Below, in pieces: positions 5,611-27,051 of a stretch of DNA of 32,000 nt. Origin of the DNA: Promethearchaeum syntrophicum (lineage in GTDB: Archaea; Asgardarchaeota; Lokiarchaeia; Sigyniarchaeales; Promethearchaeaceae); NCBI RefSeq assembly GCF_008000775.2, contig NZ_CP042905.2, positions 600,001 through 632,000 on the forward strand. The letters run 5' to 3'. Position numbers and translations under genes: made by a program. Under the pieces are notes generated by a model. That model did no database searches, was not told where the DNA came from, and saw only the letters and a program-made list of their open reading frames with translations. Each line of letters opens with the position of its first letter. The first letter of the stretch is position 1.

Positions 5611-5671
5611 GCTTACTAAAAAATAAAAAAATAAAAAAATAAAAAAATATTCAAAACAGGAAGAGAAAAAA

Positions 5672-6499
5672 ATGAAATCAACAAATTACTCAGAAAAAGT
5701 TTTAGACCACTTCAAAAACCCTAGAAATGTTGGGACTTTAGATGGTGGCGATGTTGCCAGTGGTAGGGTTGGAAACCCGACATGTGGTGATATCATGGAA
5801 ATGTATATTGAAGTGAAGGATGATATCATAAAAGATATCCGATTTCAAACCTTTGGTTGTGGATCTGCTGTTGCTACTTCTTCGATGACAACTGAAATGG
5901 TTAAGGGAATGTCTCTCGATCAAGCATTGAAAGTAACCCGAAAGGATGTTGCAAACGAATTAGATGGTTTACCTCCAATTAAAATGCATTGCAGTAATCT
6001 CGCAGCGGATGCTCTTCATGAAGCGATCCGCAATTACCGCGCAGGAAATTATAATAAAGAACCCACAGGAATAGCGGAAATTAAACCCCAAACTAACGTT
6101 ATTAAAGGTGAAATCGATTATATTGGTAAAGGAGTCTCTTATCAAGTTAAAAATTATGCTGATTATAAAGATCAACGGGTTTTAGTTCTATTTAAAGGAG
6201 ATATTTCAATCGAAATTGCTCTAGAATTAACGAAGCATACTGGTAGGGTAATTTTATTAACCCTTGAAAAAGAAATAAAGAGTGATAATGATTTAAGAAA
6301 GAAACTTCTACGGTCTGATGTTAAACTTTTGTACGAAGCAAAACTCCTGGAAATTCTCGGAGAAGGTGAAGTGGAAAAAGTTAAGATTTTAGACTTAGAT
6401 GAGGAAGATAAATATGATCTTTTTGTAGATTCAGTTATTATTCCCGAACATTTAACTATCCCAAGCACAACTGAATGTTCGGATGATATTCCTCTTTGA
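5672..6499 (+). CDS. iscU: IscU Fe-S scaffold fused to a degenerate thioredoxin-reductase-like NAD(P)H-domain
   Basis: 275 aa. Residues 1-125 are IscU, with GNPTCGD, FGCGS and KMHCSNLA carrying the three ligand Cys. Residues ~145-260 (GKGVSYQVKNYADYKDQRVLVLFKGDISIEIALELTKHTGRVILLT...VEKVKILD...DLFVDSVII) align by eye with the TrxB NADPH domain. Confidence 0.85.
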   Translation: MKSTNYSEKVLDHFKNPRNVGTLDGGDVASGRVGNPTCGDIMEMYIEVKDDIIKDIRFQTFGCGSAVATSSMTTEMVKGMSLDQALKVTRKDVANELDGLPPIKMHCSNLAADALHEAIRNYRAGNYNKEPTGIAEIKPQTNVIKGEIDYIGKGVSYQVKNYADYKDQRVLVLFKGDISIEIALELTKHTGRVILLTLEKEIKSDNDLRKKLLRSDVKLLYEAKLLEILGEGEVEKVKILDLDEEDKYDLFVDSVIIPEHLTIPSTTECSDDIPL

Positions 6500-6706
6500 T
6501 ATTTTTGCTTTTTTTTTCATTTATTTCTATTATTAGAGTTTGACTAATAATTTTATTAATCCCCGAGTATTTCCTTAAAAACTCAATTTAACAGCATATA
6601 AACATTTAATAATGCTTATTTTGATCTAATATGTGACAATTTAGATGAAATTTTGTGAAAATGTAGATATTGTATAAATAGTTCAACTATCTCGGAAAAG
6701 AAAAAA

Positions 6707-9469: not shown

Positions 9470-9470
9470 C

Positions 9471-9602
9471 AATTCCAACCCGACCACCCCTCTAAAAGTG
9501 GGACAGTTCGATCATGAAGAGTATGCACACAGTGTCTATGTAGTCGGAAACTTTGCTTACTTAATTGATTATTTTAATGTGTTTTTTTGTTTTTTTATTT
9601 AA
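9471..9602 (+). pseudogene. Orphan LVIVD repeat fragment directly after the stop of the 920-aa gene, in another frame
   Basis: Hand translation from 9471 gives NSNPTTPLKVGQFDHEEYAHSVYVVGNFAYLIDYFNVFFCFFI*. This is one LVIVD unit with no start codon, shifted +1 relative to the upstream ORF. Confidence 0.5.
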
Positions 9603-9722
9603 TTTTTAATGATAAAGTTTTTTTTAAAGCGAAATTTATCTTATTTAAGTAAAGTTATGAATTAAGTGAAAATTTAATTTTTAACCTTATTTGAAAATTA
9701 ATAAAAAACGGTTTGAAATAAA

Positions 9723-9974
9723 ATGGCTAACGGTACAGTTAAATGGTTTAATGGTCGTAAAGGTTTTGGTTTTATCACTCCTGCTGAAGGAGAAAAAGAC
9801 GTTTTCGTTCATTACAGTGCTATTCAAGTTGCAGAGAATGAATTTGCAACCTTAAACGAGAACGATGAAGTAGAGTACGAAGTAGTTGAGGGAGAAAAAG
9901 GCTTAGAAGCAAAGAACGTCACAATTACAAAGAAAGCACCTTATCAACCTCGAAATAGAAGAAATAACTATTAA
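9723..9974 (+). CDS. csp: Cold-shock domain protein (CspA family) with basic C-terminal tail
   Basis: 83 aa. [17 protein letters not shown] (RNP1-like KGFGFI) and DVFVHYSAI (RNP2-like VFVH). The tail is [14 protein letters not shown]. Confidence 0.9.
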
Positions 9975-10103
9975 GATTTAAGTATTTAGATTTAGTAATA
10001 AAATAAAATATTTATGCTGAAATTTTTGATTGAATGTATGGCATTACAATGCCCCTGAGATTTACCCTGTTGGGGTGGATTTATTTTTAGTTTTTTCCTA
10101 TAA
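9971..10103. repeat. Direct repeat R1 (left boundary of island); csp downstream/terminator region
   Basis: ttaagatttaagtatttag..tttatgctgaaatttttgattgaatgtatggcattacaatgcccctgagatttaccct..ggggtggatttattttt recurs at 22311-22434. By eye there are about 6 substitutions plus a 6-nt and a 5-nt indel. Confidence 0.9.
10040..10096 (+). terminator. Putative csp terminator: two short hairpins followed by T-runs
   Basis: ggcat-taca-atgcc (10040-10053), then accc-tgttg-gggt (10064-10076), then ttatttttagtttttt. Oligo-T tracts are known archaeal termination signals. The stems are short. Confidence 0.35.
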
Positions 10104-10105
10104 TC

Positions 10106-10168
10106 TTACTTATAATTTAAATTGAGTTGGTAGATTCTCCCAGTAGATGCCCAGAGCGACCTGTTTTT
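10106..10168 (-). pseudogene. Scrap homologous to the 3' end of the GNAT gene at 22438..22980
   Basis: ataatttaaattgagttggtagattctcccagtagatgcccagagcgacc aligns by eye with agaatttaatctgtgagtgaatattctcccagaagaaacccaaagcatcc (22440-22490). Similarity decays after about 60 nt. Confidence 0.5.
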
Positions 10169-10202
10169 AATTATTGGTTATGCTACACTTTACATGTAAA
10201 CA

Positions 10203-10271
10203 GAGGTAGAGTACGAAGTCGTTGAGGGAGAGAATGGTCTTTATCAATTTTGGAATAGAAAATTTATTTAG
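10203..10271 (+). pseudogene. Detached 3'-end fragment of a divergent csp allele
   Basis: It reads [22 protein letters not shown], against the intact csp [34 protein letters not shown]. Nucleotide identity is obvious (gtagagtacgaagt.gttgagggaga). It is 36 nt shorter, in frame, and has its own stop at 10269-10271. Confidence 0.7.
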
Positions 10272-10295
10272 GTAGAGAAAAAATTTAATAATGAG

Positions 10296-11921
10296 ATGCA
10301 ATTAAATGCACTACATTTCTCGGACTTACATTTTGGGCAATATAATTTAAAAGAAGAAGAAAAGAAGAGAGGAGATTTTGATAATTTCTTTTCCAATTTG
10401 CTACTTCAGTTGAAGAAAATTATTGTATCAGAGAAAATAAACCTAATCATCATATCTGGGGATTTTTGTTCAAGAAATCAATTTGAGGAGGATATCTTGA
10501 TTTCTTCAAACAAATATCTCGATGAATTTATAAACGTTTTCAAAGAAAAAGACATTTCAGTATTAATTTGTATAGGTAATCATGAAATTTCTCGTTCAAT
10601 GGATCATTCAAAAAGACAGAAATTATACTTTGAATTAATAAATCACATAAAAAAAGATCTAAATATCAATTTTTCAAAAAATTTTAATCGAAATATAATA
10701 TCATATAAGATTTTCAAACAACAACAAAAAATTTTCTTTAGCATGGATAGTACCTTCAGTTTGACAAAAGAAGGGGAATGGGAAAATTCAAGTTTAAATC
10801 TGAAGGATATAGATGAATTTCTTAATGAAATAAATTCCCAAATAAATCTAACAAATTATGATAAATACATTATATCTCATCATGGACTTTTAGACATGCC
10901 CAATAATCAAGATATAATCGAAGGTTTACATGCTCGAAAAATCTATTACATATTTTCAGGACACAAACATGATAAATATTACATACCTTTTCATATTCCT
11001 GGAGAAAAACTACCTATTAATAATTATATTGCTGGGTCAATTCTTCTTTCTCAAAAACGGAGAGCAGAATCAAAATCTTGGATTCCCGCAGATCTTCAAT
11101 TTAATCAATATTCTTTTGAAAAAAGTTATAGTAAAGATATTGTTAATGCTTGGTATTGGCGTTATAATTCAAATGCACGATGGGTTAAAGAAGAATTAAA
11201 AATAAATCGAGAAGATAATGGTACTAAATGCGGAATTTTTTCTCAAATGGTTCCAAATTATAAAGAATCTTTTGATTTCCTTCTTGATATTAATCAAAAA
11301 TTTGATGAAAATTCTCAATGTATTACCAGTTGGGAAGATATAAACAAAGATATTCTGAATTTTTCTCAAAAAATTCATAATAATAATAAATTAAAAAAGA
11401 TTTTATTTGATGGGAATACGCACCTCTCAATAGGGTTCTCATTCGGGTATCAATTTAGACAAACAACTGGATATAAAATTTCGTACAAAAATCAATTAAC
11501 TAATCAAACATGGAATCTTGAAGAATTGAATTTTTCGGAAATAGGTCCAGATTTGGAAATAGATGTTGATATCGGCGATGAAGATAATAAATATTCAGTT
11601 ATAATAATTAATATTGGAAGTCGTGATGTAGTAAATCCAACTAAAGAATATCTTCTGAATAAAAAAATCAAATTTGAGAAATTGTTAAGTTTCAAATATT
11701 CACCAACCCTAACTACTCAAATAATTACTCCACTAATAAATTCCATAATTGATACAATTTCAAATGAGATTTCGAATTATAAAAAATATTATTTGTTTAT
11801 TGCTGGTCCACTTGCATTTTTTGGATTGTTGGCTACAAAATTTAATATGATAACACCATTACAATTACATGAATTTAGCCGAACAGAGAAAAATTATTTT
11901 CCAAGCATGTTGTTAATTTAA
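10296..11921 (+). CDS. CBASS effector candidate: calcineurin-like metallophosphoesterase fused to a C-terminal SAVED-like sensor domain
   Basis: 541 aa. The MPE motifs occur in order: FSDLHFG (DxH), IISGDF (GD), CIGNHE (GNHE), ISHHG, FSGHKHD (GHxH). The C-terminal ~200 aa end in KKYYLFIAGPLAFFGLLATKFN..LQLHEF, the hallmark SAVED ending. The gene lies directly upstream of the CD-NTase. Confidence 0.7.
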   Translation: MQLNALHFSDLHFGQYNLKEEEKKRGDFDNFFSNLLLQLKKIIVSEKINLIIISGDFCSRNQFEEDILISSNKYLDEFINVFKEKDISVLICIGNHEISRSMDHSKRQKLYFELINHIKKDLNINFSKNFNRNIISYKIFKQQQKIFFSMDSTFSLTKEGEWENSSLNLKDIDEFLNEINSQINLTNYDKYIISHHGLLDMPNNQDIIEGLHARKIYYIFSGHKHDKYYIPFHIPGEKLPINNYIAGSILLSQKRRAESKSWIPADLQFNQYSFEKSYSKDIVNAWYWRYNSNARWVKEELKINREDNGTKCGIFSQMVPNYKESFDFLLDINQKFDENSQCITSWEDINKDILNFSQKIHNNNKLKKILFDGNTHLSIGFSFGYQFRQTTGYKISYKNQLTNQTWNLEELNFSEIGPDLEIDVDIGDEDNKYSVIIINIGSRDVVNPTKEYLLNKKIKFEKLLSFKYSPTLTTQIITPLINSIIDTISNEISNYKKYYLFIAGPLAFFGLLATKFNMITPLQLHEFSRTEKNYFPSMLLI

Positions 11922-11990
11922 ATTAATAAACCACAAAACCACATTTTTATAAATTCAAGTTTTATTTTGAATAATAAGGGGTAAAAAAAA

Positions 11991-12977
11991 ATGGCAAAAA
12001 CTGTATCTGCTGCTTTTGAAGAATTTAAAACTTTAATTGAGCCATCTCCAGAAGAAAGGAAAAAAATTATTACTCGACATGAATATATTCGCAATAATAT
12101 ATCAGAATTCATTACTCTTGATAAGAACAATAGTAGTTTTCTATCAGGTTCTTATATTAGATCTACTCAGATAACACCCGTAAATGATGTTGACATAGTA
12201 TTGGTTTTAGACAAAGATACTTATTATGATAAATATAAAACTGAAATTGTAAAACTATTAGAACATATAAAACGAATGTTGAAAAAACTTGGAAATTATC
12301 AGACAACAGAAATGCGAAAACAAACTCATTCTATTGGGATGTTGTTAAGACATGGAGCGAAAGTAGATATTGTTCCTGCATTTTTAAAGAATTCGGAAGA
12401 AAACATATATGAAATACTTGATAAGGATAAGAATTGCTATATCGAAACCGCTCCACAGAATCATAAAGAATTGATTTCAAATTATAATAAAGAAATCAAT
12501 AACTTCATTCCAGTAGTCAAAATGTTAAAAAATTGGAAAAATACTATAAATAATCAACTAATTAATGATAAGTTCAAGATAAAATCTTTTCATTTAGAAT
12601 TGTTAGCGATAAATGCAATTAATAATAGTTTCAGTGGATACCGTGATGGAATAATTCAATTTTTCCAAAATGCAGAACAATTAACCCTAAAAAAGTTAGA
12701 AGATCCATTAGGTATTAGTGGAGATATTTCTTCATATTTATCATCTGAACAAAAAAAAACTTTAAATGAAAAAATAGAAGCAATTAACGAAAAAATCAAT
12801 AAATTACGTGATTATGAATCAAAGGGAGAACATCAAAAAGCAATTTCTGGGTGGAGACAGATTCTCGGTCACCCATTCCCAGATAAAGAAAAATCAACAT
12901 CCCAGAATAATCAAACTCAAGAAAAAAGAGAGACAAAACATCCAAAACATGGGAAGAATTATATATTTGGGAAATAA
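11991..12977 (+). CDS. cdn: cGAS/DncV-like nucleotidyltransferase (CD-NTase, SMODS-type)
   Basis: 328 aa. Pol-beta NTase core LSGSYIRSTQITPVNDVDIVLVLD (GS...DxD; Asp codons 12186-12188 and 12192-12194) with the third acidic residue in GAKVDIVPAF. Followed by Cap2 and Cap3. Long polar C-terminal tail ending ..NYIFGK. Confidence 0.85.
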   Translation: MAKTVSAAFEEFKTLIEPSPEERKKIITRHEYIRNNISEFITLDKNNSSFLSGSYIRSTQITPVNDVDIVLVLDKDTYYDKYKTEIVKLLEHIKRMLKKLGNYQTTEMRKQTHSIGMLLRHGAKVDIVPAFLKNSEENIYEILDKDKNCYIETAPQNHKELISNYNKEINNFIPVVKMLKNWKNTINNQLINDKFKIKSFHLELLAINAINNSFSGYRDGIIQFFQNAEQLTLKKLEDPLGISGDISSYLSSEQKKTLNEKIEAINEKINKLRDYESKGEHQKAISGWRQILGHPFPDKEKSTSQNNQTQEKRETKHPKHGKNYIFGK

Positions 12978-12986
12978 AATATTAAA

Positions 12987-14792
12987 ATGAATCGAACTCA
13001 ATATTTGAAATTATTAAATAATCTATCTACATTGAAAGATGGGTATAATATTAAACAAATTTCATATGGAAAGAATAAAATAATTAGCGCTCGGTTTAGA
13101 TATGGGGAAAATGATATTAAATATGCCAAAATATTTATATCAGACGAATTTCCTCTAATTCCTCCAAAGGTATGGTTGTTTGATGATATAAGATTAGAAA
13201 AAATATCAGATTTTCAATGGACTACTCATAAGAATTCTGACGATTCAATTTGTTTATTTACTGGATCGTTAAGTGATAATAGCTGGCGTTATCAAGATTC
13301 AATTTTTAAAATCTTTTTAAAAATCGAAGCTTTTCTCACTCAATGCCTTTCCAATACGATATCAGACGATCATTCAACTATATTCTATCCTGTACCAGGA
13401 AGACCTCAAGATCCTGTAGTTTTTATGTTTTATGAGGACTTTCATGAAGCTAAGAAAAATTCTGAAAATGAATTATTTCTATATTCGTTTTTAGACAATA
13501 GACCTGCGTTTTTACTTACATTAAAAAAAAATAAAAATGATTTTGATGTGATTAAAGAAAAATATGGATGGATTATTAATCCATATTATCAAAAAGCGTA
13601 TATTGTATTTTTAAATACAAATATATTAGATTTTAGAAGAAATTTAAAAGGTGAAATTAATTTTGAGAAAATTGTATCAGAATATTTAGAAGAGAATATC
13701 AATCTCTCAAATTATGATTATTTTGCCTTTTTTTTTAAAGATAGTGTCATTTCCGATGAACTCATTATAAAAACTTCCCAATTCAATCCTCTTTTATCCT
13801 ATCTATATGATTTAAAAGGAAAGAAGTTTGAAAATATTAATAAAATTCCTCATTTTAAAATAATCGGATTTAACCCTACTTATGATCTTTATCAAAGAAC
13901 TTATGGAGTTTTAGAAAAAATGATTGATTCAATTGAAGAAAAATCTTTATTAATTATAGGACTTGGTTCTATGGGCTCAACAATTGCGCTTGAATTGGCT
14001 AAATCAGGATTCAGGAAATTTAGTTTAGTAGATCCAGATATCCTAAATCCAGTGAACGTTTGCAGACATATTGGATTTTTATCAGATATTGGGAAACACA
14101 AAGTAGAGATTGTTAGAGAACAGATTATGCAAAAAAATCCATATGCAGATGTTGTTCCCTATCCAAATGATTTATTTTTGAACAAAAACTTGCCAATCTT
14201 AGCACATCTTATCAAAGAATCCGATATAATTATTGATACGACCGCAGTTGAATCTGTTGGTATGCTGATAAATAAATTTGCATTAGAGTTAAATAAAGTA
14301 GCTATTTATTGTTATTGTTATCGTAATGCTATTCTTGGAAGAATTTTTAAAGTAATTCCAAAAAGAACTCCTTGTTATAGTTGTGTTCAACAGAGTTTAA
14401 TGAAAGACGAAGGTTATTTTTCTAGTTTGGGAAAAAATTCTTCCGAGGATGATGATTTGAATGGAAATGTATATTTCGAAGGATATTCTGAACCAGGGAT
14501 ACCTGGAATAAGTATCGATATTAATTTTGTAAATTTATTTGTATGCAAATTCATTATTGAAACGTTAAAAAAAGAATTACATCAAATTCCGATGTTAAAA
14601 GCAGATCATTATTTGTGGCAAAATTCCCCAACTAAGTATGGAAATGAGCAGGTTGGTTTTATTCCTATTGGTGACGAAATTCAAAAGGATCGAAACTGTA
14701 AGTTTTGTGGATCTTCTTTAAAATTACAGAATTCTGGAAAACATCGTAAAACCGAACAAAAGATCCAAAAACTCGAAAAAAAACTTAAATAA
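12987..14792 (+). CDS. cap2: Cap2: fused E2-like (UBC) and E1-like (ThiF/MoeB adenylation) enzyme
   Basis: 601 aa. E2 signatures: FPLIPPKVWLF (compare eukaryotic YPxxPPKVxF) and TTHKNSDDSICLF (HxN...C). E1 Rossmann: LLIIGLGSMGSTIALELAKSGFRKFSLVDPDILNPVNVCRHIG. Cys pairs: CYSC and CKFCG. Confidence 0.9.
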   Translation: MNRTQYLKLLNNLSTLKDGYNIKQISYGKNKIISARFRYGENDIKYAKIFISDEFPLIPPKVWLFDDIRLEKISDFQWTTHKNSDDSICLFTGSLSDNSWRYQDSIFKIFLKIEAFLTQCLSNTISDDHSTIFYPVPGRPQDPVVFMFYEDFHEAKKNSENELFLYSFLDNRPAFLLTLKKNKNDFDVIKEKYGWIINPYYQKAYIVFLNTNILDFRRNLKGEINFEKIVSEYLEENINLSNYDYFAFFFKDSVISDELIIKTSQFNPLLSYLYDLKGKKFENINKIPHFKIIGFNPTYDLYQRTYGVLEKMIDSIEEKSLLIIGLGSMGSTIALELAKSGFRKFSLVDPDILNPVNVCRHIGFLSDIGKHKVEIVREQIMQKNPYADVVPYPNDLFLNKNLPILAHLIKESDIIIDTTAVESVGMLINKFALELNKVAIYCYCYRNAILGRIFKVIPKRTPCYSCVQQSLMKDEGYFSSLGKNSSEDDDLNGNVYFEGYSEPGIPGISIDINFVNLFVCKFIIETLKKELHQIPMLKADHYLWQNSPTKYGNEQVGFIPIGDEIQKDRNCKFCGSSLKLQNSGKHRKTEQKIQKLEKKLK

Positions 14793-14812
14793 TTTAATAT
14801 GGGTGCTTTGAA

Positions 14813-15271
14813 ATGAAAAGAAAGAAACTTCAATTTTCAACAGAAATTATTCATCAGCTATTTGCTGAAATAAAAAATGAAAGAGTTGAGAATTGTGGTG
14901 CTTTAATAGGAAAGCAAATAGATAGCACTTTGTTTAGAGTGACTAATTATGTTAAAGATGATAAACCAATATTTCAATCAAGATTCAACATTCAACGGAA
15001 TACGAATAATTTATATCATTTGATTAATGAAATTGTTAAAAAAAAAGAAGAAGAAGTTGATTATATAGGTGAGTGGCACTCACACCCAAATTCTTCATGT
15101 ATTTATAGTCAAATCGATTTTCTAACCATGAATATGATGATTAATGACCCTGATTACTCCTTTTTAAATGAGATCATACTATTTATTGTAGGAAAAAACC
15201 GTTGTATGAATGCTTTTCTTTTTAGTAAGTCTCGAAATCGACCTATTTCATTAAAAATAATTGTAAAATAA
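14813..15271 (+). CDS. cap3: Cap3: JAB/JAMM (MPN+) isopeptidase
   Basis: 152 aa. Upstream Glu in VENCGALIG, and the JAMM motif GEWHSHPNSSCIYSQIDFLT (HxHx7Sx2D). Confidence 0.9.
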   Translation: MKRKKLQFSTEIIHQLFAEIKNERVENCGALIGKQIDSTLFRVTNYVKDDKPIFQSRFNIQRNTNNLYHLINEIVKKKEEEVDYIGEWHSHPNSSCIYSQIDFLTMNMMINDPDYSFLNEIILFIVGKNRCMNAFLFSKSRNRPISLKIIVK

Positions 15272-15352: not shown

Positions 15353-17260
15353 ATGAATATGAGTTTCATTCTTAAAAAGATAAAAATAGAAAATTATAGA
15401 TGTTTTAAGGAATTCGAGTTCGATTTATGTGAGTTTAATACAATTGTTGGGAAAAATGCAACAGGAAAATCTTCTTTACTCTATGCTATTAATGAAATTA
15501 ATAATGAAAAGCTTTCTAAAGAGACAATTTATAATGATTATAAAGAAAATGAAATCCAAAGAATTTCTTTCTTTTTTTCAGGAATTATAGAAAATTCCTC
15601 TATAAAAATTCGAGATCCAATTCTGATTTTAACTGACGAGGGTTATAAAATAACGTATTTCGAACTGTTTCTAAAAATATCAGAAGTTAAAATGATAAGT
15701 CCCAAAGAAAATTTTCGGTATAATGGAACAAATGAGAGTTTAAAACAAGTAAAACTACAAAATCTTTTGGAAATTAAAAATAAAAAGGAATTTATTTTTC
15801 AATCAAAAGATTGGAATCCAATTCATGAAGTTAAGTCCAAATTTAATTTTATATTGAAAAATTGGACTCTCCCAAGTCTAATTTTTTTTATTGACAGCAA
15901 AGCTATACTACAAACTCATGATTTTAGTAAAATTGAAAGCTCTTCTAATTTCAAAGAAATTCTAATTGATTTAGCCAGACCAAAGGTAATTTTCTTTAGT
16001 GAAAATATTTTGAATCAAAATATTAATTCAAGTTATAATTTTTTATCGTTTAATGAAAACTTCAACTTTACACTGAAACTTCTGAAATTAGGAGAAATTG
16101 ATCGAGAAAAGTTTCAGAAATTAAGTGAAAGTGCAAAAGAAAATATGATTGAGAACATTGAAGCAAAATTTAATGAAATTTTTCTTAATCAACCATATCC
16201 AGTATCTATGATCCAATTTTCATTTCAATTCATTAAAGATAACTTTAGTTTCAAACCTAGATTGAAGAATGGTAAAAAAATTGAATTTGAAAACCTTAGT
16301 GCAGGTCTTCGATGGTTATATACGTTTATCTTGGTTTTCTTTGATCCGTTGATTCATGATGATATAATTGAAAAATTTGATCATAGAATTATTTTGATAG
16401 ATGAACCGGGGAAAAACATCCATCCAGAGGCACAAATGGAAGTGCTAGAATATTTAAAACTCATGAATAAAAACAACCAAATAATTTATTCTACACATAT
16501 GCCCTTTTTAATTGATTATTCCAACCCAAATAGTGTTCAATGTATTTCCTATGTTCAAAATACTCAAAAGCACGAAATTTCTAATGGAAAAGCGTCGGAT
16601 TTAAAAATACGAATTGCAGATGCAATTGGATTACCTAAAGAAAGATTTCTAACATTTCCAGAAAAGATTCTCCTTGTGGAAGGTCCAAGTGATAGAGTAT
16701 TTATTGAAAGAATAAATGAGTATTTTCATGAAATAAATAACAAATTAGCACAATCATCGGAAATTGAGATTTGGTTTTACCATGGTCTTTCTGAAATTAA
16801 TCATCTTTGCAAACTTTTTGATAGTTGGAAAAGAAGGAATTTTCTTCTTCTATATGATGATGATACTGATCTATTTTCCAAAGGAAAGGTAAAAGATCCA
16901 AAAGATGAACCTGAAGTACAGAAATTTCGCCGTAATATTGTGAAATTAACACACCCCGCTATAAAAAAGAATATTGCAATAGAAGATTTTATTCCACGAA
17001 CTTTATTTAATTCAACGTTAAAAAAATGGTTAAAGAGTTATGGGTATGAGAAAGATTTTCTCAAAGATGTGCAAAACGATATTAAAGATCCACAAGTAAA
17101 TCAAAGTCAAATTATTTCCAGATTAGAAAAAGAAGAACAATTGAGTAAGTTAGAATTCATTAAACTCATATTTGAAACTGAAAATCAGAAATTATTTACT
17201 GAAAATTTGAAAATAGTATATCTATTTCAATTAATTACTGAAAAATTTAGAAAAATATAG
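15353..17260 (+). CDS. OLD-family nuclease: N-terminal ABC-type ATPase plus C-terminal Toprim domain
   Basis: 635 aa. KIKIENYRCFKEFEFDL..NTIVGKNATGKSSLLYAI (Walker A), LSAGLRWLYTFIL (signature-like), RIILIDEPGKNIHPEAQ (Walker B), IIYSTHMPFLI (H-loop). Toprim: KILLVEGPSDRVFIE, then FLLLYDDDTD, then IEDFIP. Confidence 0.8.
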   Translation: MNMSFILKKIKIENYRCFKEFEFDLCEFNTIVGKNATGKSSLLYAINEINNEKLSKETIYNDYKENEIQRISFFFSGIIENSSIKIRDPILILTDEGYKITYFELFLKISEVKMISPKENFRYNGTNESLKQVKLQNLLEIKNKKEFIFQSKDWNPIHEVKSKFNFILKNWTLPSLIFFIDSKAILQTHDFSKIESSSNFKEILIDLARPKVIFFSENILNQNINSSYNFLSFNENFNFTLKLLKLGEIDREKFQKLSESAKENMIENIEAKFNEIFLNQPYPVSMIQFSFQFIKDNFSFKPRLKNGKKIEFENLSAGLRWLYTFILVFFDPLIHDDIIEKFDHRIILIDEPGKNIHPEAQMEVLEYLKLMNKNNQIIYSTHMPFLIDYSNPNSVQCISYVQNTQKHEISNGKASDLKIRIADAIGLPKERFLTFPEKILLVEGPSDRVFIERINEYFHEINNKLAQSSEIEIWFYHGLSEINHLCKLFDSWKRRNFLLLYDDDTDLFSKGKVKDPKDEPEVQKFRRNIVKLTHPAIKKNIAIEDFIPRTLFNSTLKKWLKSYGYEKDFLKDVQNDIKDPQVNQSQIISRLEKEEQLSKLEFIKLIFETENQKLFTENLKIVYLFQLITEKFRKI

Positions 17261-17575
17261 TTTAATGATCAGAATATATAAGAAACCAACCTTTTTTATC
17301 CATTTACTAAATTTAGTGATGAAAGTCTTTATCAATTTTATTACAGATTATATTGTTTACAAAATTAGTAAGTGAAAAATAGAATCCCAATCTTCCAAAA
17401 ATTCATTAAACAAAATTATATTTTTAATAACGATTAAATAATAATTCGGTTTCGGAATTTGGTTTCAAACTACTCATTTTTTTGAAGAAACATTAAAAAG
17501 AATTAGGTTTGAAAGAATATATTTTAGTAAAATCATAGTAATATTTTTTTATAATAAATATAACTTGTATATAAA

Positions 17576-18742
17576 ATGGATCAAAATAAAAATAGAGATG
17601 CTAATATCATTGAAGCGTTTATGTGCAAGTGTATCAAAAGTAATCCTAAAAATTATAATTTATTCTGGCTTTGTGATGATGATGGTCTTTCAGCGAAGAA
17701 TGATATTATTACAATAATAAAATCTATGCTTGGTGAAAATAATATTCTTTTTATTTCACTCAATGATATTAATTCGGATTATATTCTGCATGATAATAAT
17801 TCTCTATTTTCACTTTTTGTAAGGATTCCCCAACCTCATGAAAATCATTCACTTGAATTAAGTGGCCTTATGAAAATTATCGATAATATGAATATTAAGT
17901 TTAAATTGAATAATGGAAATTTAATTGATACAAAGATCTATTTTCAGATAACATTAATATCAGATTTTGATCCTTTCATATATATAAAGAAAAAAGACTA
18001 CAGTTGGGTAATTTCAAATATTATTTTCATCAAGATTTTTAAAAGAATGGAATTTGGCATCACAAATAAAATCATTAAAAAGGAATTAGATGGTATTTTT
18101 TCATATTTAATTAATTCAGTGTTTCATGAAGCAGATAATATTATTTCTGATCAAAAACAATTCCAGATTTTATTTTCAAACTATTTAACAGAAATTCTTC
18201 CTGATATAAATCTTGAATCTCATATTGAAAATATTAAAAACGAAATAATGAACAGAATCAACTTAAATGAAATCATTCAGAATCACCTGATGGAACGGGT
18301 ATTGAACTGTATTCTCTCTTTTTATAGTGCTCATCAAGTAGAACCATTATTTGAATCTGGAAAAAAAGTATTTGAGAAAGAATTTCACAAAAGAGTTTAC
18401 TCTCATCTCTATCCTCTCTTAGGAACAAATATTGAAAATCATAAGAAAGTGGGCAAAGGAGATATTGATTTTTTAATATATAATTATCCTCTAGATGTTA
18501 AAGTTGAAGAAAAAGATCAGAAATTGGAGGAGATATATTTAAATCATAAAGATCAAATAATCCAATATTGTTATTACCGAAAGGAAAGAGTAGGTTTTCT
18601 TTTAGTATACGAAAATACGATAAAGAAACCAAATTTTGAGAAAAAAGATTACAAGGTATTCCAAGAAGATGGAATTTATGTAATAATCATTCTTTTGCGT
18701 GGTAATTTTCCATATCCAAGTAAAATGAAATCTCAAAAATGA
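17576..18742 (+). CDS. Uncharacterised protein with C-terminal PD-(D/E)xK nuclease-like motif set; N-terminus weakly resembles a degenerate P-loop NTPase
   Basis: 388 aa. C-terminus: EKEFHKRVYSHLYPLLG..GKGDIDFLIYNYPLDVKVEEK..DQIIQYCYY, which gives E, D, DxK and QxxxY in canonical order. N-terminus: NLFWLCDDDGLSAKNDIITIIKSMLGENN sits where P4/D5-type NTPases carry GxGxNGKST...LxG. Preceded by a 315-nt AT-rich gap. Confidence 0.5.
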   Translation: MDQNKNRDANIIEAFMCKCIKSNPKNYNLFWLCDDDGLSAKNDIITIIKSMLGENNILFISLNDINSDYILHDNNSLFSLFVRIPQPHENHSLELSGLMKIIDNMNIKFKLNNGNLIDTKIYFQITLISDFDPFIYIKKKDYSWVISNIIFIKIFKRMEFGITNKIIKKELDGIFSYLINSVFHEADNIISDQKQFQILFSNYLTEILPDINLESHIENIKNEIMNRINLNEIIQNHLMERVLNCILSFYSAHQVEPLFESGKKVFEKEFHKRVYSHLYPLLGTNIENHKKVGKGDIDFLIYNYPLDVKVEEKDQKLEEIYLNHKDQIIQYCYYRKERVGFLLVYENTIKKPNFEKKDYKVFQEDGIYVIIILLRGNFPYPSKMKSQK

Positions 18743-19125
18743 ATGAAAAAACTATTTAAATTGTTGATCTTGTTATGAATGTTAGAAAATAATTCATTAT
18801 GTAATGGTTTGAATGAGAACCTTTTTAAAAAACATGTCAAATCATTTCTATTTAAAGAAAACTATAGTATTAGTTTAGAAAATTACTTGAAATTGGTAAT
18901 AGAAATTAAAGATATATCAATCGTTTTTAATTGATTGAAATTTCGTTTAAATCAAAAAATTATAATATCTCAATATTTTTCAAGAATTTTTCATGATTTT
19001 CTTTTTCATACAACGAATTCCTTTCAGTTTTATTCTAAATGCCTCTTATTTCCGTATATTGATGATACATTGAATGAAAAAACGTTTTTAGAAAATTTAA
19101 AAAAAAGAAAAAATTCCTATAGAAT

Positions 19126-22100
19126 ATGAGTAATGAAAATCCATTTGAAGTTTATGATTTAAATGAAATATTGAAATCAGATATTCCGCATATAATACAA
19201 AAGAATAATAGTGAATTATTAGAAAATAATTTCAAATTAAATCCTCAAAATTATTCTACATATCAAATTAATATAATTCAGAATATACAAGAAAAATTGA
19301 AAAAACAAGAATTAGATATTGGAGATAAAATATTTGCATTGGAATTAATTCTAATTTCCATAGAATTAGATTTTGATATAGATAATTCAACCAAAGATTT
19401 AATATGGGAATTTATGATTAATCATATTCTTCCAACAGGTGCATTAAATTGGGAAAAGTATAAAATTCTTTTAAAAATTGTTAAAGTTGAAGATATCAGC
19501 AATATAATTGAAAAAAATCCTGCATTAAGTGAATTATTTTTTGATGCTTATCCCGAAAGAAATGCTGAATTTTTTAAAATATGCATTAAATATGAGAAAT
19601 GGGCGATAGCTCGAAAAATTTTAGAAAATTATAATAATTTGATACCCGAAAATTTAGAAGATGTAAAAAAATTGTTTGAAAATTATTATATCAATCATTC
19701 AACACTAAAGAAAATGCAAAATAATCTTGATCCATCGATTCTAAATGAATTAAATGGTATTAGAATCAAAAGAAAAGAAAATTGGATTGAACAATTACAG
19801 ATAAAATTAAAAATTATTGAGGAAGAAGGTATCAATCCGAAAAAAGATATGTATCAGTTACAATATAATTTATCATTTATAATAGACACTTTTTCAGGAT
19901 TAGAACTTGAAAAAATTTCTATAGATTGTCTTAATGCTTTAAAAAATCCATCAAATGATAGGTGGGTCAATATGATTTTATTAGAAATTATATTTTTTAA
20001 TAGTAAGATTATCTCTTCCTTAATCCCTCGCATTGAGGAGTATGGTTTTGAAAATCTTCTTTTTTTTTATTATTACAATAATCCTGATTTACTTCTAGGT
20101 AAACAAACTTCTTGGTTCGTTAAATACAAAGATCGAGGATTAGATATTGCAAAAATTTACCTAAGTCGGTTAGGATACGAAAATAGACCTACTATGCATT
20201 TATTTTCATTATTTATTTCTAATGATTTTCAACCAATTGAAGCTCTTCTAGAATTATGTTTGACAAATTCTTCCACTAAATCAGAAATCCAAGAAATAAT
20301 AATGGAAAAAATAATATCCATAGATTTTTCAAGAATTAAAGAAATTCCTAATGGGATCTCTTATTTGACTATTCTACTTAATAATCATGGCTTTTCCGAA
20401 TGGTACTTTAAATTTCCGATAGACTTTTCTATAAAGAAAATATTAGAATTAAAAGACAATTGCGAAGAACTACATGAATTTCTCAATGGGACAACATTTT
20501 GGGATATTGTAAGCAGAATGGAGTCCAAATTCCATCAATTTTTTATTAACCTTCTTATTGATAAGAACCAAAAGTCTATTTTATATTTAATTGATTCATA
20601 TCCTGAAATATTTATGGCAAATATTGATATTTTTATCACTAAAATCTCTGAAAGAGATAATATGACTTCAAGTGATTTGAAAATTATTAATTTACTTTTA
20701 AAAAAGAAATCAATTTCATTTACTATAGGAAAAGATTTGAATAAATTTATTGAAATGAAACAACTAAATTATCAAAAAGTAAGATTGTTGCACACATTGG
20801 GAAAATATTCTGAATTAATTGATTTAATTATAGAATTGATGAATCTTCCTTACATTAATCCAAAATTCAAGATAATATTGTGGTTGGATTATATTTCATT
20901 ATGCCTAGAATATTCATTAGAAGATCTAAACGAAGAATTTGTTAAACAATTAATATTTTCCATTAATAATTGTTATGAAAAGAGTAAATCCGCTTTTTCT
21001 CATAATGATTGGGATTTTTTTCTCAAATATTATTATATAATTGGTAGATTATATCTTGTGCAATATCAAAAAAATCCAGATGAAGATAAAAATCATTTAC
21101 TTGAAAAATCAAAACAATTATTTATTGAAGGATTAAAATATTCTACTGATATTGAAACAAACTCTCTTCTTTCAGAATTAATTATTGTAACAGAAATCGA
21201 TCTCAGTGCAAAATCTCTAAAAAAAGATATTACAAAGTTTACACATTTATCATTATTAAATGATTTTTTGATTAGAACTAATCCTCCTCTTTTTTCAATA
21301 GAAAGAAATATATTGACTGCTTGCTTCCATCTTGAAATTGCAGAAAAAAATAGCAAAAATCCTCTATTTAGCTGGGATAAAAATAAAAAACTTATATACA
21401 CATGGGATTATTTACCTCCTTTTGATGAAAAATCTCCTCTTTTTAGGTTAATGATACATAAATCAATAATAACTGAAAAATTACAAAATTATTCTCTATT
21501 AATTAGAAGTAAATTGAAGATTAACGAAGAAAATGAAATTCCCATTTCGATGGGAGTGCAATCAGATTGGTATGTTGCAGAATTTAAATTAAATTTATTC
21601 GATGTTGATTCTTTATCTGCATTTGAACTATTTTTCAAAAAAAAGGATGATTTTCCTTCTTATGAAGCAAATCTTCCTTTAATAGGTAAAATTATTCCAA
21701 AAGAAATGCATTTAATGGAACTAATCGAAAGAGAAATTGTATTATGCTGTGAAATAATTCAAAATAGGCATATTATATTAAAAAAAAATTTAGAAATTCC
21801 TTTAAATGATTTATTGACTGATTTTTTAAGACAAGGACTTAAAACATACAATATTGATGTTAATCAAGAACAGAGAGGTGGAAAATCTAAAAAGATTGAA
21901 GGAGAAATAGATATATCTTTCTATTATCAAGGAGGGCATCGTATTACTATTTTAGAAGCATTATTATATAACAACACTCATGTAGAACATTATGAGAAAT
22001 TGGTCAAAAATTATGATGCTATTGGTCGATTAAGAAATTTCATTTTAATTTATTATATTGGTGATAGTTTCTACCAATTTGTTGAAAACTACAAAGAAAA

Positions 22101-22248
22101 TATATCTAAATCTAAAATATTTGAAAGATTTGAACCATATAGGCGAACTTTTGATTCCACAGAAATACGAATTTTAAAATCAATTCAGAAGAATTTTAAT
22201 TCTAAATTTAATGTCATTCATTTTATTGTACACTTAAGAAATCCTTGA
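19126..22248 (+). CDS. Large (1040 aa) uncharacterised, apparently all-helical protein with C-terminal nuclease-like domain related to that of the 388-aa neighbour
   Basis: Long uninterrupted ORF with no P-loop or other catalytic motif in the first ~900 aa. The C-terminus IEGEIDISFYYQGGHRITILEALLYNN..HYEKLVKNY..FILIYYIGD parallels GKGDIDFLIYNYPLDVKVEEK..QIIQY..GFLLVYENT in the neighbour. Confidence 0.5.
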   Translation: MSNENPFEVYDLNEILKSDIPHIIQKNNSELLENNFKLNPQNYSTYQINIIQNIQEKLKKQELDIGDKIFALELILISIELDFDIDNSTKDLIWEFMINHILPTGALNWEKYKILLKIVKVEDISNIIEKNPALSELFFDAYPERNAEFFKICIKYEKWAIARKILENYNNLIPENLEDVKKLFENYYINHSTLKKMQNNLDPSILNELNGIRIKRKENWIEQLQIKLKIIEEEGINPKKDMYQLQYNLSFIIDTFSGLELEKISIDCLNALKNPSNDRWVNMILLEIIFFNSKIISSLIPRIEEYGFENLLFFYYYNNPDLLLGKQTSWFVKYKDRGLDIAKIYLSRLGYENRPTMHLFSLFISNDFQPIEALLELCLTNSSTKSEIQEIIMEKIISIDFSRIKEIPNGISYLTILLNNHGFSEWYFKFPIDFSIKKILELKDNCEELHEFLNGTTFWDIVSRMESKFHQFFINLLIDKNQKSILYLIDSYPEIFMANIDIFITKISERDNMTSSDLKIINLLLKKKSISFTIGKDLNKFIEMKQLNYQKVRLLHTLGKYSELIDLIIELMNLPYINPKFKIILWLDYISLCLEYSLEDLNEEFVKQLIFSINNCYEKSKSAFSHNDWDFFLKYYYIIGRLYLVQYQKNPDEDKNHLLEKSKQLFIEGLKYSTDIETNSLLSELIIVTEIDLSAKSLKKDITKFTHLSLLNDFLIRTNPPLFSIERNILTACFHLEIAEKNSKNPLFSWDKNKKLIYTWDYLPPFDEKSPLFRLMIHKSIITEKLQNYSLLIRSKLKINEENEIPISMGVQSDWYVAEFKLNLFDVDSLSAFELFFKKKDDFPSYEANLPLIGKIIPKEMHLMELIEREIVLCCEIIQNRHIILKKNLEIPLNDLLTDFLRQGLKTYNIDVNQEQRGGKSKKIEGEIDISFYYQGGHRITILEALLYNNTHVEHYEKLVKNYDAIGRLRNFILIYYIGDSFYQFVENYKENISKSKIFERFEPYRRTFDSTEIRILKSIQKNFNSKFNVIHFIVHLRNP

Positions 22249-22310: not shown

Positions 22311-22434
22311 TTAAGATTTAAGTATTTAGTAATAAAATATTTATGCTGAAATTTTTGATTGAATGTATGGCATTACAATGCCCCTGAGATTTACCCTACT
22401 GGGGTGGATTTATTTTTCGCTTTTTCCTATTATA
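22311..22434. repeat. Direct repeat R2 (right boundary of island); intergenic region upstream of the GNAT stop
   Basis: Copy of 9971-10103. It contains the same hairpins (ggcattacaatgcc at 22369-22382) and T-runs, and ends 3 nt before the GNAT stop codon (22438-22440). Confidence 0.9.
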
Positions 22435-22437
22435 TAA

Positions 22438-22980
22438 CTAGAATTTAATCTGTGAGTGAATATTCTCCCAGAAGAAACCCAAAGCATCCAATTTCTTTCC
22501 TCCATAAGTGAGAGTTTTATGAAATTTTGGAATACCCCCCATTTTGAGATAGAAATTACATGCAGAATTATCCTTCAACGCCCAAATAACCATTGTTTTA
22601 TAATTCATATCTAAGAAAGATTTAACTATTGCATTGAAAAGTAATGTGCCTATTCCTTGTTTCCAGTATTTAGGAAGAATATAAATCGCGTTTAGGTCAC
22701 CGTCGATATCATAATCATCATAAGAACTCCGACCACCCATGGAAAACCCGACAATATCAGTTCTATATTGAGAAGAAATTTCTGCCACAAACATTTCCTT
22801 CTTGTTTTTACCCAAATTTCTAATTCTTTGTGACCATGCCGGAATTTTATCAACTATAGAACGAGAATCTAGATAATCTTGAGGAATTATGCCTTTATAC
22901 GCTACTTTCCACGTGTTAATATTGATAGATGCAATAGCTGAGGCATCAGAAACAACTGCTTTTCTAATCGATACATTCAT
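22438..22980 (-). CDS. GNAT-family N-acetyltransferase
   Basis: 180 aa. IVGFSMGG.. and ILPKYWKQGIGTLLFNAIV (the Q/RxxGxG/A acetyl-CoA motif). Confidence 0.85.
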   Translation of the reverse strand: MNVSIRKAVVSDASAIASININTWKVAYKGIIPQDYLDSRSIVDKIPAWSQRIRNLGKNKKEMFVAEISSQYRTDIVGFSMGGRSSYDDYDIDGDLNAIYILPKYWKQGIGTLLFNAIVKSFLDMNYKTMVIWALKDNSACNFYLKMGGIPKFHKTLTYGGKKLDALGFFWENIHSQIKF

Positions 22981-25537: not shown

Positions 25538-26002
25538 ATGAAGTTTTCAAAACTTATTCAAAAAAAGCAGAAAAAACCATCTAAAAAGTTCAAAAAACCT
25601 AAAGGAGCAATTTGGATTTTCTTCAGCTACACCACAAAAGATCTCAAAGAATTTCATATTAAAGGACTGGCAAAGGCTCTTGAGAAATATGATGAGTATG
25701 ATCAAGTTCTGATTTTGAAAGAAAAAACCACAGATAGTATTATTGAAAACATGGATTTTTATATTAAAAATGTAAATGCTTTGGTGCTCTTTTGTAGTAA
25801 AAGTTCAAAAATATCTGAAGCGGTTCAAAACGAATGGGAATCGGCAGAAGCTATAGGGATACCAATTATTCCAGTATTTAAAACTACTAATCACGTACCC
25901 GCACTTCTAAGGGCGAAAAATGGAGTTAATTTCACAAAAAATCCCCTACAAAATACAATAAATAAATTACATGAAAATCTCCAGCGAAAAATAATAAAAT
26001 AA
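25538..26002 (+). CDS. Small TIR-like domain protein with polybasic N-terminus
   Basis: 154 aa. KKQKKPSKKFKKPKG is followed by IWIFFSYTTKD, ALVLFCSKSSKISEAVQNEWESA and IPIIPVF. This is the TIR_2-type pattern (FxSYxxxD ... S.W...E ... iiPV). Confidence 0.6.
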   Translation: MKFSKLIQKKQKKPSKKFKKPKGAIWIFFSYTTKDLKEFHIKGLAKALEKYDEYDQVLILKEKTTDSIIENMDFYIKNVNALVLFCSKSSKISEAVQNEWESAEAIGIPIIPVFKTTNHVPALLRAKNGVNFTKNPLQNTINKLHENLQRKIIK

Positions 26003-26091: not shown

Positions 26092-27051
26092 TTAATTTTT
26101 TATACGACACCCATTTGATTTTAATTCTTCCATCCATGAATTTATTTCTGGTTTAAATTCTTTCCAATTATTTTCTTCTAACCAGAAAGTTCTTAGATTT
26201 TTTAATTTAATTATGGAAACAGGTAATTCTGATAGATTATTTTTCGAAATTATCAAATTAGAAAGTTTACTAAGATTTCCTATCCATTCCGGCAATATTG
26301 ACAGCTTATTTCCGAAAATATTTAAATCTTGCAAATTAATTAAATTTTTATAAGAATCTGGGAGATTTGAAAGGTTATTTCGATATAATGACAGTTCAAT
26401 TAAATTGCGCAAATTTCCAATTTCATCAGGTAATTCAGAAATAAGGTTGTCTCCAAGAGTTAGTTCCCGTAAATTTTTTAATTCAGAGATCCATGATGGA
26501 ATTTCTGTGAGAAGATTTTTATAGAGAACTAAACGGGTTAAAAGTGTCATTAATTTAACCCATTCTGGAATTTCCTGTAAATTCAACCCGAATAGATATA
26601 AGTATTCTAAGGTTTTGATCTCTGAAATCCATGACGGAATTTCTTCTAAAGGATTTCCTCCAATATTTAGGGCTTTCAACATTGTAAAATCTTTAAACCA
26701 TTCTGGAACGATCGTAAATCCATTGTATTGAATATGCAACTGCGAAAATGCTGTTAACTGAGTTAGATTTTGGGGAAGGTTTGTTAATTTATTATTCGCT
26801 ACCCAAAGATAGTTAAGTGATTTTAAATCACCTATACTCTCGGGAATGACTTCCAACGCTTGTCCTTGTAAAGCTAAAGCTAAAATTCTCCCCTTTTGGG
26901 CAATAAATCCATACATATTCCGATTTAAGTTTTGAAGGGAGGGAATTTGGGAACCAGTAAGCACTTCAAGAGATAGTAAAAATTCATATTCCTCTTTATG
27001 AAGCGCAGTTCCGTAATAATCTTTCAACTGATTTTCATTAGGTTCTGTCAT
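26092..27051 (-). CDS. Leucine-rich repeat (LRR) protein
   Basis: 319 aa with about 10 consecutive ~23-aa LxxLPxxIxxLxxLxxLxLxxNxL units (e.g. LSELPDEIGNLRNLIELSLYRNNLSNLPDSYKNLINLQDLNIFGNKL). Its start is 2 nt after the OFOR beta stop. Confidence 0.9.
   Translation of the reverse strand: MTEPNENQLKDYYGTALHKEEYEFLLSLEVLTGSQIPSLQNLNRNMYGFIAQKGRILALALQGQALEVIPESIGDLKSLNYLWVANNKLTNLPQNLTQLTAFSQLHIQYNGFTIVPEWFKDFTMLKALNIGGNPLEEIPSWISEIKTLEYLYLFGLNLQEIPEWVKLMTLLTRLVLYKNLLTEIPSWISELKNLRELTLGDNLISELPDEIGNLRNLIELSLYRNNLSNLPDSYKNLINLQDLNIFGNKLSILPEWIGNLSKLSNLIISKNNLSELPVSIIKLKNLRTFWLEENNWKEFKPEINSWMEELKSNGCRIKN

Follow-up and report, generated by a model that had tools for sequence, protein, structure and literature searches.

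A repeat-bounded defence island in Promethearchaeum syntrophicum with an OLD-family gene and two candidate sensor-nuclease genes from undescribed families

An OLD-family gene and two orphan genes in a repeat-bounded island

The window analysed here is a stretch of 32,000 nucleotides (nt) from the archaeon Promethearchaeum syntrophicum (contig NZ_CP042905.2, positions 600,001 to 632,000). It contains a low-GC defence island of 12.3 kb whose distal half, beyond a type II cyclic-oligonucleotide-based antiphage signalling system (CBASS), consists of the three open reading frames (ORFs) under study, encoding proteins of 635, 388 and 1040 amino acids (aa; Table 1). An original prediction, made from the sequence alone, had described these ORFs as a candidate defence module in which an OLD-family nuclease is followed by two proteins of no named family that share a nuclease-like C-terminal domain. 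The three ORFs were recovered at the predicted positions, all on the forward strand, with the predicted gaps of 81 nt from cap3 to the OLD gene, 315 nt from the OLD gene to the 388-aa gene and 383 nt from the 388-aa gene to the 1040-aa gene. Because an in-frame stop codon sits just upstream of each start, these gaps cannot be shortened.

Judged by its sequence, the 635-aa protein is an intact OLD-family ATPase-Toprim, in agreement with the predicted assignment. It matched the Pfam families AAA_15 (E = 6.5e-16), AAA_21 (E = 1.3e-11) and OLD-like_TOPRIM (E = 3.2e-5; 24.8 bits versus a cut-off of 23.2), each above cut-off, as well as the PADLOC Old model (E = 1e-24) and, over its full length, a PHROG family (E = 8e-25). 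The ATPase carries Walker A (GKNATGKS, residues 33–40), an LSAGL signature (315–319), Walker B (IILIDEP, 346–352) and an H-loop, and the Toprim part carries LLVEGPSD (440–447, including E443) and LLLYDDDTD (498–506, including the DDDTD cluster). Its closest solved relative is the class 1 protein TsOLD (PDB 6p74; E = 2.5e-8).

OLD proteins are classified by gene context: class 1 comprises stand-alone genes in variable neighbourhoods, class 2 occurs with a UvrD-like helicase (Gabija), class 3 in retrons, and class 4 is split as PARIS; the scheme was later extended by a class 5 from Sulfolobales and by eleven clades, U1–U11, that are uncharacterised (PMC10568477, PMC12796447). As in Gabija (GajA with the helicase GajB) and PARIS (AriA with AriB), an OLD-type ATPase/Toprim protein is followed here by genes on the same strand. 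Neither downstream protein, however, contains a helicase family or Walker A or B motifs, which excludes Gabija as the original prediction had argued, and the PADLOC GajA match covered only the generic ATPase part. No reverse transcriptase domain was found in the scanned proteins and no Rfam match in the window, in contrast to a retron. The ATPase and Toprim form one polypeptide, unlike the split pair of PARIS, the Toprim matched OLD-like_TOPRIM and not DUF4435, and the AriA matches were confined to the generic ATPase region. The protein looks like a stand-alone, class-1-like nuclease. Like P2 Old and the Thermus scotoductus OLD protein, it is a single ABC ATPase-Toprim polypeptide with all catalytic motifs and has no dedicated helicase, reverse transcriptase or DUF4435 partner. 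It differs in being archaeal and very divergent, its class-1-like placement being by partners and PDB relative. It also adjoins CBASS genes, whereas according to an earlier description class 1 OLD genes do not lie near other defence genes (PMC10568477).

The predicted defence-island setting was also borne out. GC content is 0.22–0.30 across 10–23 kb of the window versus 0.32–0.39 across the 7 kb to the left of the island, and a direct repeat of approximately 150 nt encloses everything from the CBASS genes through the 1040-aa gene. Its 109-nt core is 94% identical between the two copies, and a 29-mer of the repeat occurs exactly twice in the window with none expected. Within the left edge, 35 nt of the cold-shock coding region recur as a relic (9867–9901 versus 10203–10237). 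The flanking genes are housekeeping in character: to the left they encode a cold-shock protein, NifU/cysteine desulfurase and an LVIVD-repeat protein, and to the right lie GNAT, rubrerythrin-like and pyruvate:ferredoxin oxidoreductase genes. Neither an integrase nor a tRNA or Rfam RNA was found in the window, and the repeat was absent from the viral contigs scanned. The repeat and the cold-shock relic, without an integrase or tRNA, look like the outcome of en-bloc insertion or cassette exchange. Since the block is bounded by the repeat, its seven genes occupy one insertion or cassette and travel together; travelling together does not show that they work together.

On sequence evidence, the four genes preceding the OLD gene are a complete type II CBASS, with the CD-NTase, Cap2, Cap3 and a SAVED-fused effector all present. 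The effector is a calcineurin-like phosphoesterase (Metallophos) fused to SAVED, and it matched the endonuclease-type effector models of PADLOC through the SAVED part only. As the OLD gene begins only 81 nt after cap3 on the same strand, the OLD protein, possibly with the downstream genes, could be an accessory or second effector of this operon. A weak nucleotidyltransferase-like ORF also precedes an OLD gene in the related locus of Promethearchaeia archaeon ABR02 (L003), a likeness that is not significant (E = 0.15). Against this idea, the operon already has its SAVED-fused effector, the OLD protein has no cyclic-nucleotide sensor domain, and OLD is not known as a component of CBASS types I–IV. 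We regard an accessory role in CBASS as very improbable.

Table 1. Features of the island and its flanks, with positions in the window unless another locus is named.
Feature	Position	Strand	Evidence or remark
Cold-shock gene	9723-9974		left flank
Left direct-repeat copy	~9971-10120	.	repeat search and pairwise alignment; begins at the cold-shock gene stop codon
Type II CBASS (context)	10296-15271	+	Pfam and PADLOC matches
CBASS Metallophos-SAVED effector	10296-11921	+	Metallophos 2.7e-12, SAVED 3.2e-11
CBASS CD-NTase	11991-12977	+	SMODS 2.7e-25, PADLOC cyclase 9e-66
CBASS Cap2 E1/E2	12987-14792	+	ThiF 2.7e-27, E1-E2 5e-27
CBASS Cap3 JAB	14813-15271	+	Prok-JAB 3.7e-9, JAB 5e-23
OLD-family nuclease (predicted), ABC ATPase and Toprim, 635 aa	15353-17260	+	Pfam, PADLOC and PHROG matches; motifs
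Spacer OLD/388, 315 nt, AT-rich, no convincing ORF	17261-17575	.	sequence read, small-ORF list
388-aa gene	17576-18742	+	
388-aa N-terminal residues 1-211, orphan	17576-18208	+	homolog searches, AlphaFold2 confidence <35
388-aa C-terminal residues 212-388, RecB/Cas4-like PD-(D/E)xK-type domain (predicted)	18209-18742	+	alignments, AlphaFold2, Foldseek
Spacer 388/1040, 383 nt, AT-rich, short low-complexity ORFs only	18743-19125	.	sequence read, small-ORF list
1040-aa gene	19126-22248	+	
1040-aa N-terminal ~870 residues, orphan, no NTPase motif	19126-21732	+	homolog, PDB and Walker searches
1040-aa C-terminal residues ~870-1040, family domain	21733-22248	+	45 representatives, alignments, AlphaFold2, Foldseek
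Right direct-repeat copy	~22311-22450	.	repeat search and pairwise alignment; ends at the GNAT gene 3' end
GNAT gene	22438-22980	-	right flank
SIR2_2-like gene after 388-family gene	L002/L021 2251-3561; L019 from 4057; L022 3647-4975		

Two C-terminal domain families

As originally predicted, neither the 388-aa nor the 1040-aa protein could be assigned to a family in Pfam, PADLOC, NCBIfam or PHROG. Among 5.8 billion proteins searched, only seven relatives of the 388-aa protein came up, all matching its C-terminal half, and genome and metagenome scans brought the family to 12 distinct loci. These comprise L003, whole-genome shotgun contigs prefixed SDBS–SDBV and LAZR, and metagenome contigs from JGI, ENA and Logan; all 12 are Asgard-type contigs or derive from marine-sediment metagenomes, and from these sequences the domain looks restricted to Asgard archaea. 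The conserved unit spans residues ~212–388, about 180 aa at 50–60% identity, and nothing else is conserved. The N-terminus has no homolog detectable by BLASTP, matches starting at residue ~213, although phmmer weakly extended the match of one relative (L016) to residue 81. Other family members carry different N-termini: a region of ~240 aa shared by a group of 424–431-aa proteins, leucine-rich repeats (LRR) in L002 and L019, and more than 1000 aa of tetratricopeptide repeat (TPR)-like sequence in L017 and L018. Such swapping of LRR, TPR-like and orphan N-termini on one domain looks like the pattern expected of sensor-effector immune proteins.

Invariant residues of the 388 family include E267, H271, HKKV (289–292), G295-D296-I-D298 (GDID), NYP, D307-V-K309-V-E311, KDQ (325–327), Y331-C-Y, RK, GFL (G340), Y345 and NT. 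The residues of a catalytic D...(D/E)xK motif are therefore in place, D296, D298, D307, K309 and E311 being invariant in eight homologs, and Q327 and Y331 form a QxxxY motif (Q327-IIQ-Y331). GDID, D307-V-K309 and the QxxxY motif occur in the order GxxD...DxK...QxxxY, which is that of RecB/Cas4-type PD-(D/E)xK nucleases. Consistent with this likeness, residues 294–361 gave a sub-threshold match to a Cas4-like PHROG family (E = 0.074). The domain differs from RecB/Cas4 nucleases in having neither a significant profile match nor an iron-sulfur cysteine cluster, and its invariant HKKV and NYP are extra motifs specific to the Asgard family; a Pfam scan of its members at lenient thresholds gave nothing useful. 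An AlphaFold2 model built from an eight-sequence alignment (predicted local distance difference test score, pLDDT, 65–90) showed an alpha-beta-beta-beta-alpha-beta core followed by two more strands, with helices at 267–282 and 317–334, strands at 299–301, 304–311 and 339–346, and a first strand of low confidence. Foldseek ranked OkrAI first among PDB structures (E = 0.022, probability 0.75), followed by BstYI, ThaI, McrC, BspD6I, NucS/EndoMS, PspGI and the Avs4 nuclease; these matches point to restriction enzymes but are all non-significant, none reaching E <= 0.001.

The word-indexed search of the same 5.8 billion proteins found no relative of the 1040-aa protein. Using exhaustive phmmer against 1.84 billion representatives, we found 45 proteins with E < 1e-3, every match being confined to residues ~810–1040. 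The first ~850 residues had no homolog in either set, no PDB sequence match and no Walker motif, and are presumed to be a sensor or regulatory part. The C-terminal domain, by contrast with the Asgard-restricted 388 family, is on these sequences a widespread, well-populated and unannotated bacterial family, with no Pfam or PADLOC model. Its motifs, spread over ~170 aa, are E..ND, DQTRxGxS, GE(I/L)D, IIEA, HxxKLxxYD, NF(I/V)xxY and Y. The 1040-aa protein retains E890, R917, G926-E-x-D929, E944-A945, H955, K958, Y963-D964, N971, Y976 and Y989, and has QEQ where the family has DQT.

The AlphaFold2 model of the 1040-type domain, from 50 sequences (pLDDT 72.8; predicted template modelling score, pTM, 0.70), showed a helix, three strands, a helix and a strand, the element order of a PD-(D/E)xK core, with D929 immediately preceding strand 2 and E944 lying on strand 3. 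Foldseek against the PDB gave mainly noise of low template modelling (TM) score, with OkrAI and BamHI at TM ~0.3. Against BFVD, the sub-threshold matches (E = 0.025–0.3) showed an enrichment of nuclease-type entries (an Mrr-domain protein, a PD-(D/E)XK nuclease, VRR-NUC and restriction endonucleases) and of RPB5. The best Foldseek E-values for this domain were 0.007–0.09. Two weak HSDR_N matches (E = 0.00065–0.02), below cut-off, overlap the core. Two invariant residues of the next helix, H955 and K958, might stand in for the lysine that is absent from the ExK motif, and the domain is a plausible candidate nuclease. In the same lenient Pfam scan of members AlbA_2 was rejected as the identity of this domain, as it proved to be a separate N-terminal domain. 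Profiles of both the 388-type and 1040-type domains retrieved only chance matches among PDB sequences (ribosomal S24, dipeptidyl peptidase), and single members of the families, scanned against viral contigs, found nothing.

The original prediction had reported one collinear motif pattern in the two C-termini. All of the quoted motifs are present, and the composite spans exactly 51 residues in each protein (295–345 and 926–976). In a post hoc test, the eight-residue core G[DE]ID[FI].[IF]Y arose in 1 of 20,000 shuffles of the 1040-aa protein. BLASTP of the two C-termini nevertheless gave no significant alignment, and hhalign of the family profiles in three set-ups returned probabilities of 0.2–0.9% (P = 0.06–0.11, E = 0.06–0.34). 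The sub-threshold hhalign pairing is in the predicted register, with E/E, GEID/GDID, IIEA/VKVE, helix/helix and NFILVY/GFLFVY. As neither method reached significance, a single domain family common to both was rejected and the resemblance is at most at the superfamily level; on their sequences, the C-termini are fairly described as two separate families, each PD-(D/E)xK-like, with a generic shared pattern. They also differ in taxonomic range and partners. A further part of the prediction, that nuclease-like C-termini lie behind variable N-termini in a Shedu-like arrangement, was supported as an idea, with the same single-gene design as SduA. Neither protein, however, matched the Shedu family DUF4263 in Pfam or PADLOC at E <= 0.1, and the two belong to two other families. 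The element order of a PD-(D/E)xK core appeared in both models, which are of moderate confidence, and no Foldseek match was significant.

Gene contexts of the two domains

Gene context was compared in ~30 fetched loci, among which nine 388-family loci had enough upstream sequence to be informative. In two of the nine, the window and L003, an OLD gene lies directly upstream of and co-directional with the 388-family gene. A SIR2_2-like gene (MNRVYILGAGASAHAGAPLG...) forms a tighter pairing: it directly follows the 388-family gene in three separate loci of Asgard type, beginning within a few bases of that gene's stop codon or overlapping it. Other neighbours of the family include a type IIG restriction-modification (RM) gene, an N6/N4 methyltransferase, a TPR-TIR protein, a deaminase, an AlbA_2 protein and SNase-CARDB. 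In L003, a 311-aa ORF just upstream of the OLD gene (5762–6697) carries a GS...DxD nucleotidyltransferase-like motif with no Pfam hit; it aligned weakly with the core of the window's CD-NTase but was rejected as a relative (E = 0.15, not significant).

The 1040-type domain has a different set of partners. Proteins of ~220 aa consisting of this domain have starts that overlap the stops of LRR-Roc-COR (ROCO) genes (L014, 5962–8654; L031, 3950–6672), with AbiH and Thoeris adjoining one such pair, and the domain is also fused to Roc/COR or LRR proteins, as in L027 (5754–8492). One fusion lies on a Photobacterium plasmid within a Tn7-like CRISPR-associated transposon (Tn7-CAST), which is a Tn7-type I-F CRISPR transposon. 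A ROCO sensor with a 1040-type effector may be an unrecognised module; a literature search for ROCO anti-phage systems gave nothing relevant. Genes of 296–302 aa that combine AlbA_2 with the 1040-type domain overlap a preceding Tiamat-like TmtA gene (L009, 4901–8909, with a TmtA match of E = 3e-130 in PADLOC; L012, 4884–8891). Tiamat itself is catalogued among single-gene systems. In L009 the upstream partner, of 1036 aa, is TmtA-like and was rejected as a homolog of the 1040-aa N-terminus.

Elsewhere the domain lies in a prophage beside the repressor region (L011) and, in L030, has an RM-like gene and an AAA_21/DUF4276 pair as neighbours. In architecture the 1040-aa protein is most closely matched by a 1258-aa hypothetical protein on a Salmonella Senftenberg plasmid (NZ_LN868944.1; L029), which ends in the 1040-type domain and has no nucleoside triphosphatase (NTPase) motif. 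It matches the 1040-aa protein in the C-terminal domain only, and its N-terminus was thus rejected as a relative. Its gene adjoins iroBC, 1.2 kb upstream of a GHKL-type 'ATP-binding protein' (2695–6471 and 7661–9646).

In the P2-like prophage P2-EC5, ORF333 consists of an N-terminal region of ~150 aa and the 1040-type domain, and is translationally coupled to ORF555, an ABC ATPase that matches the NsnB and HEC-03B models and the AriA ATPase model. Of 5426 complete E. coli genomes, 6 have the pair (L026, 243–2913, AM157364.1; L028, 5001–7671), placed between gpA and gpQ, a site that is the old/tin hotspot of P2 (PMC9122126). The two genes are annotated only as 'AAA family ATPase' and 'hypothetical protein'. 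The ORF555/ORF333, ROCO and TmtA cases share with the 1040-aa protein the C-terminal domain and its motifs E..ND, DQTRxGxS, GExD, IIEA, HxxKLxxYD and NFxxxY. They differ in carrying it on a 200–335-aa protein beside an NTPase or fused to LRR/Roc-COR, whereas in the window it ends an orphan region of ~870 aa without an NTPase. The literature and databases searched gave neither a test of nor a name for any of these cases.

The 388-aa and 1040-aa proteins might instead have no immune role and be mobile-element cargo, toxin-like selfish nucleases, or factors of DNA repair or processing. This would fit an island that looks mobile and families that are absent from PADLOC. The contexts speak against it, being consistently defence-like: RM, SIR2-like, TIR, Thoeris, AbiH and Tiamat-like genes, the P2 hotspot and Tn7-CAST cargo. 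A non-immune role therefore seems improbable to us.

Independent modules or a multi-gene OLD system

The domain boundaries, their conservation and predicted topology, and the gene contexts lead us to favour, on balance, a defence island whose modules are independent of one another. These would be the CBASS, a class-1-like OLD and, from two undescribed families, two candidates for single-gene systems that combine a sensor with a nuclease. We infer this independence because the trio is unrepeated, the neighbours vary, the OLD proteins have diverged, the 1040-aa protein has no full-length homolog, and the spacers are long and carry T-runs and TATA-like boxes. A T-run follows each stop, as after the OLD gene, and a TATA-like box precedes the ATG of the 388-aa and 1040-aa genes by ~20–27 nt, that of the 388-aa gene reading TTTATAAT; in DNA of 22–25% GC such signals, and any promoter reading of them, are weak evidence.

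Read as independent modules, the type II CBASS, the OLD protein, the 388-aa protein and the 1040-aa protein would act separately. By analogy with P2 Old and TsOLD, the OLD protein would use ATP-dependent control of a two-metal Toprim nuclease to nick or degrade invading DNA. The 388-aa protein would join its orphan N-terminus to a RecB/Cas4-like PD-(D/E)xK nuclease domain, and the 1040-aa protein would join an orphan N-terminus of ~870 residues to a second, unrelated PD-(D/E)xK-like domain. In bacteria that domain is found at the end of, or next to, LRR, Roc-COR, GHKL-ATPase and ABC-ATPase proteins. In a Shedu-like manner, the N-terminal part of each would sense a trigger or hold the enzyme inactive, and the C-terminal nuclease, once released, would cut DNA. 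Both the defence function and the sensing and cutting activities in this scheme are presumptive.

Several observations weigh against this interpretation. In L003, an OLD gene (6969–9020) is followed on the same strand, after 231 nt, by a 431-aa homolog of the 388-aa protein (9251–10546). An OLD-like ABC ATPase, ORF555, is coupled to a 1040-type-domain protein in the P2 hotspot, and an AAA_15 gene follows P0081 in L012. The seven genes of the island run in one direction and could have been acquired together. Few Asgard loci were sampled, and many of the contigs are short. The nuclease folds of both C-termini rest on moderate AlphaFold2 models and non-significant Foldseek matches, and in the 1040-type domain D929 and E944 are invariant but the canonical lysine of ExK is missing, the motif being E-A-L. 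Finally, the 388-aa and 1040-aa proteins are defence candidates.

The predicted headline, a single new module of three genes with a domain in common, is unsupported. An undescribed system of all three genes would suit their co-directional, adjacent arrangement in one repeat-bounded island and their two nuclease-like C-termini. The OLD-388-1040 trio was repeated in none of the fetched loci, however, the 388-family homologs mostly lack an OLD gene, the N-terminus of the 1040-aa protein has no homolog, the C-terminal domains come from separate families that differ in taxonomic range, and long gaps separate the genes. We consider a three-gene system highly unlikely. The caveat attached to the original prediction, that the genes may be independent single-gene systems, is the better-supported reading. 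A weaker link is still suggested by the single recurrence, in L003, of an OLD gene beside a 388-family gene and by the ABC-ATPase partner of the 1040-type domain in a P2 prophage.

More restricted arrangements can be envisaged, and some multi-gene OLD system has a limited chance of being correct. The OLD and 388-aa proteins could form a two-gene system, a new class of OLD partner in Asgard archaea with the 1040-aa gene separate, in which the ATPase of OLD would sense foreign DNA or be loaded onto it, with the PD-(D/E)xK protein contributing further cleavage or regulating it. Order, strand and spacing are repeated in Promethearchaeia ABR02, and OLD proteins act with partners in Gabija, retrons and PARIS (PMC10568477). 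An OLD gene is nonetheless absent from seven of the nine informative loci, the partner N-termini are unrelated, and the gaps of 231–315 nt show no translational coupling, versus the overlap or abutment of the SIR2-like gene in three loci. The two OLD proteins are 24% identical over 337 aa while the nuclease domains are 50% identical, which argues against co-inheritance as a pair. We judge such a two-gene system unlikely, and hold the same view of a new multi-gene OLD class in Asgard archaea in which the ATPase would control the 388-aa and possibly also the 1040-aa protein as PD-(D/E)xK effectors. Were it correct, this class would parallel the candidate P2-hotspot pair of an ABC ATPase and a 1040-type-domain protein, and the 1040-type domain would be a widespread undescribed executioner module common to ROCO, Tiamat-like and OLD/ABC-ATPase sensors. 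As a neighbour of OLD that has recurred once, a PD-(D/E)xK protein is in any case a lead for OLD biology.

The P2-like prophages also suggest that the OLD protein might work with the 1040-aa protein, mirroring ORF555 and ORF333, which are found between gpA and gpQ in the six E. coli genomes and of which ORF555 matches NsnB, HEC-03B and AriA; the AAA_15 gene adjoining P0081 points the same way. In the window, however, the 388-aa gene and 2 kb lie in between, and ORF555 resembles the OLD protein in the Walker A region only (E = 7.6e-4, 41 aa). Many other partners of the domain are seen, Roc-COR and TmtA among them, and AAA_15/21 ATPases are common in defence islands. We consider such a partnership in the window very unlikely.

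The island brings two unannotated nuclease-like families together with CBASS and OLD inside clean boundaries, in a group whose defence systems have, in the portion of the literature surveyed, been catalogued by homology without experimental test. The 1040-type domain may matter more than the 388-type domain, given its bacterial spread, its absence from Pfam and PADLOC and its repeated NTPase partners, and together with those partners it is a more promising lead than the three-gene module. If it is an effector nuclease, the ROCO, Tiamat-like and ABC-ATPase proteins, which are orphan sensors, would gain an output. The P2-EC5 pair ORF555/ORF333 would be a system easily tested in E. coli.

Outside the island, the window encodes a small stand-alone TIR-domain protein (25538–26002; TIR_2, E = 1.4e-11) and, convergent with it, a 319-aa protein consisting only of LRR (26092–27051), both of which may be further immune-type genes.

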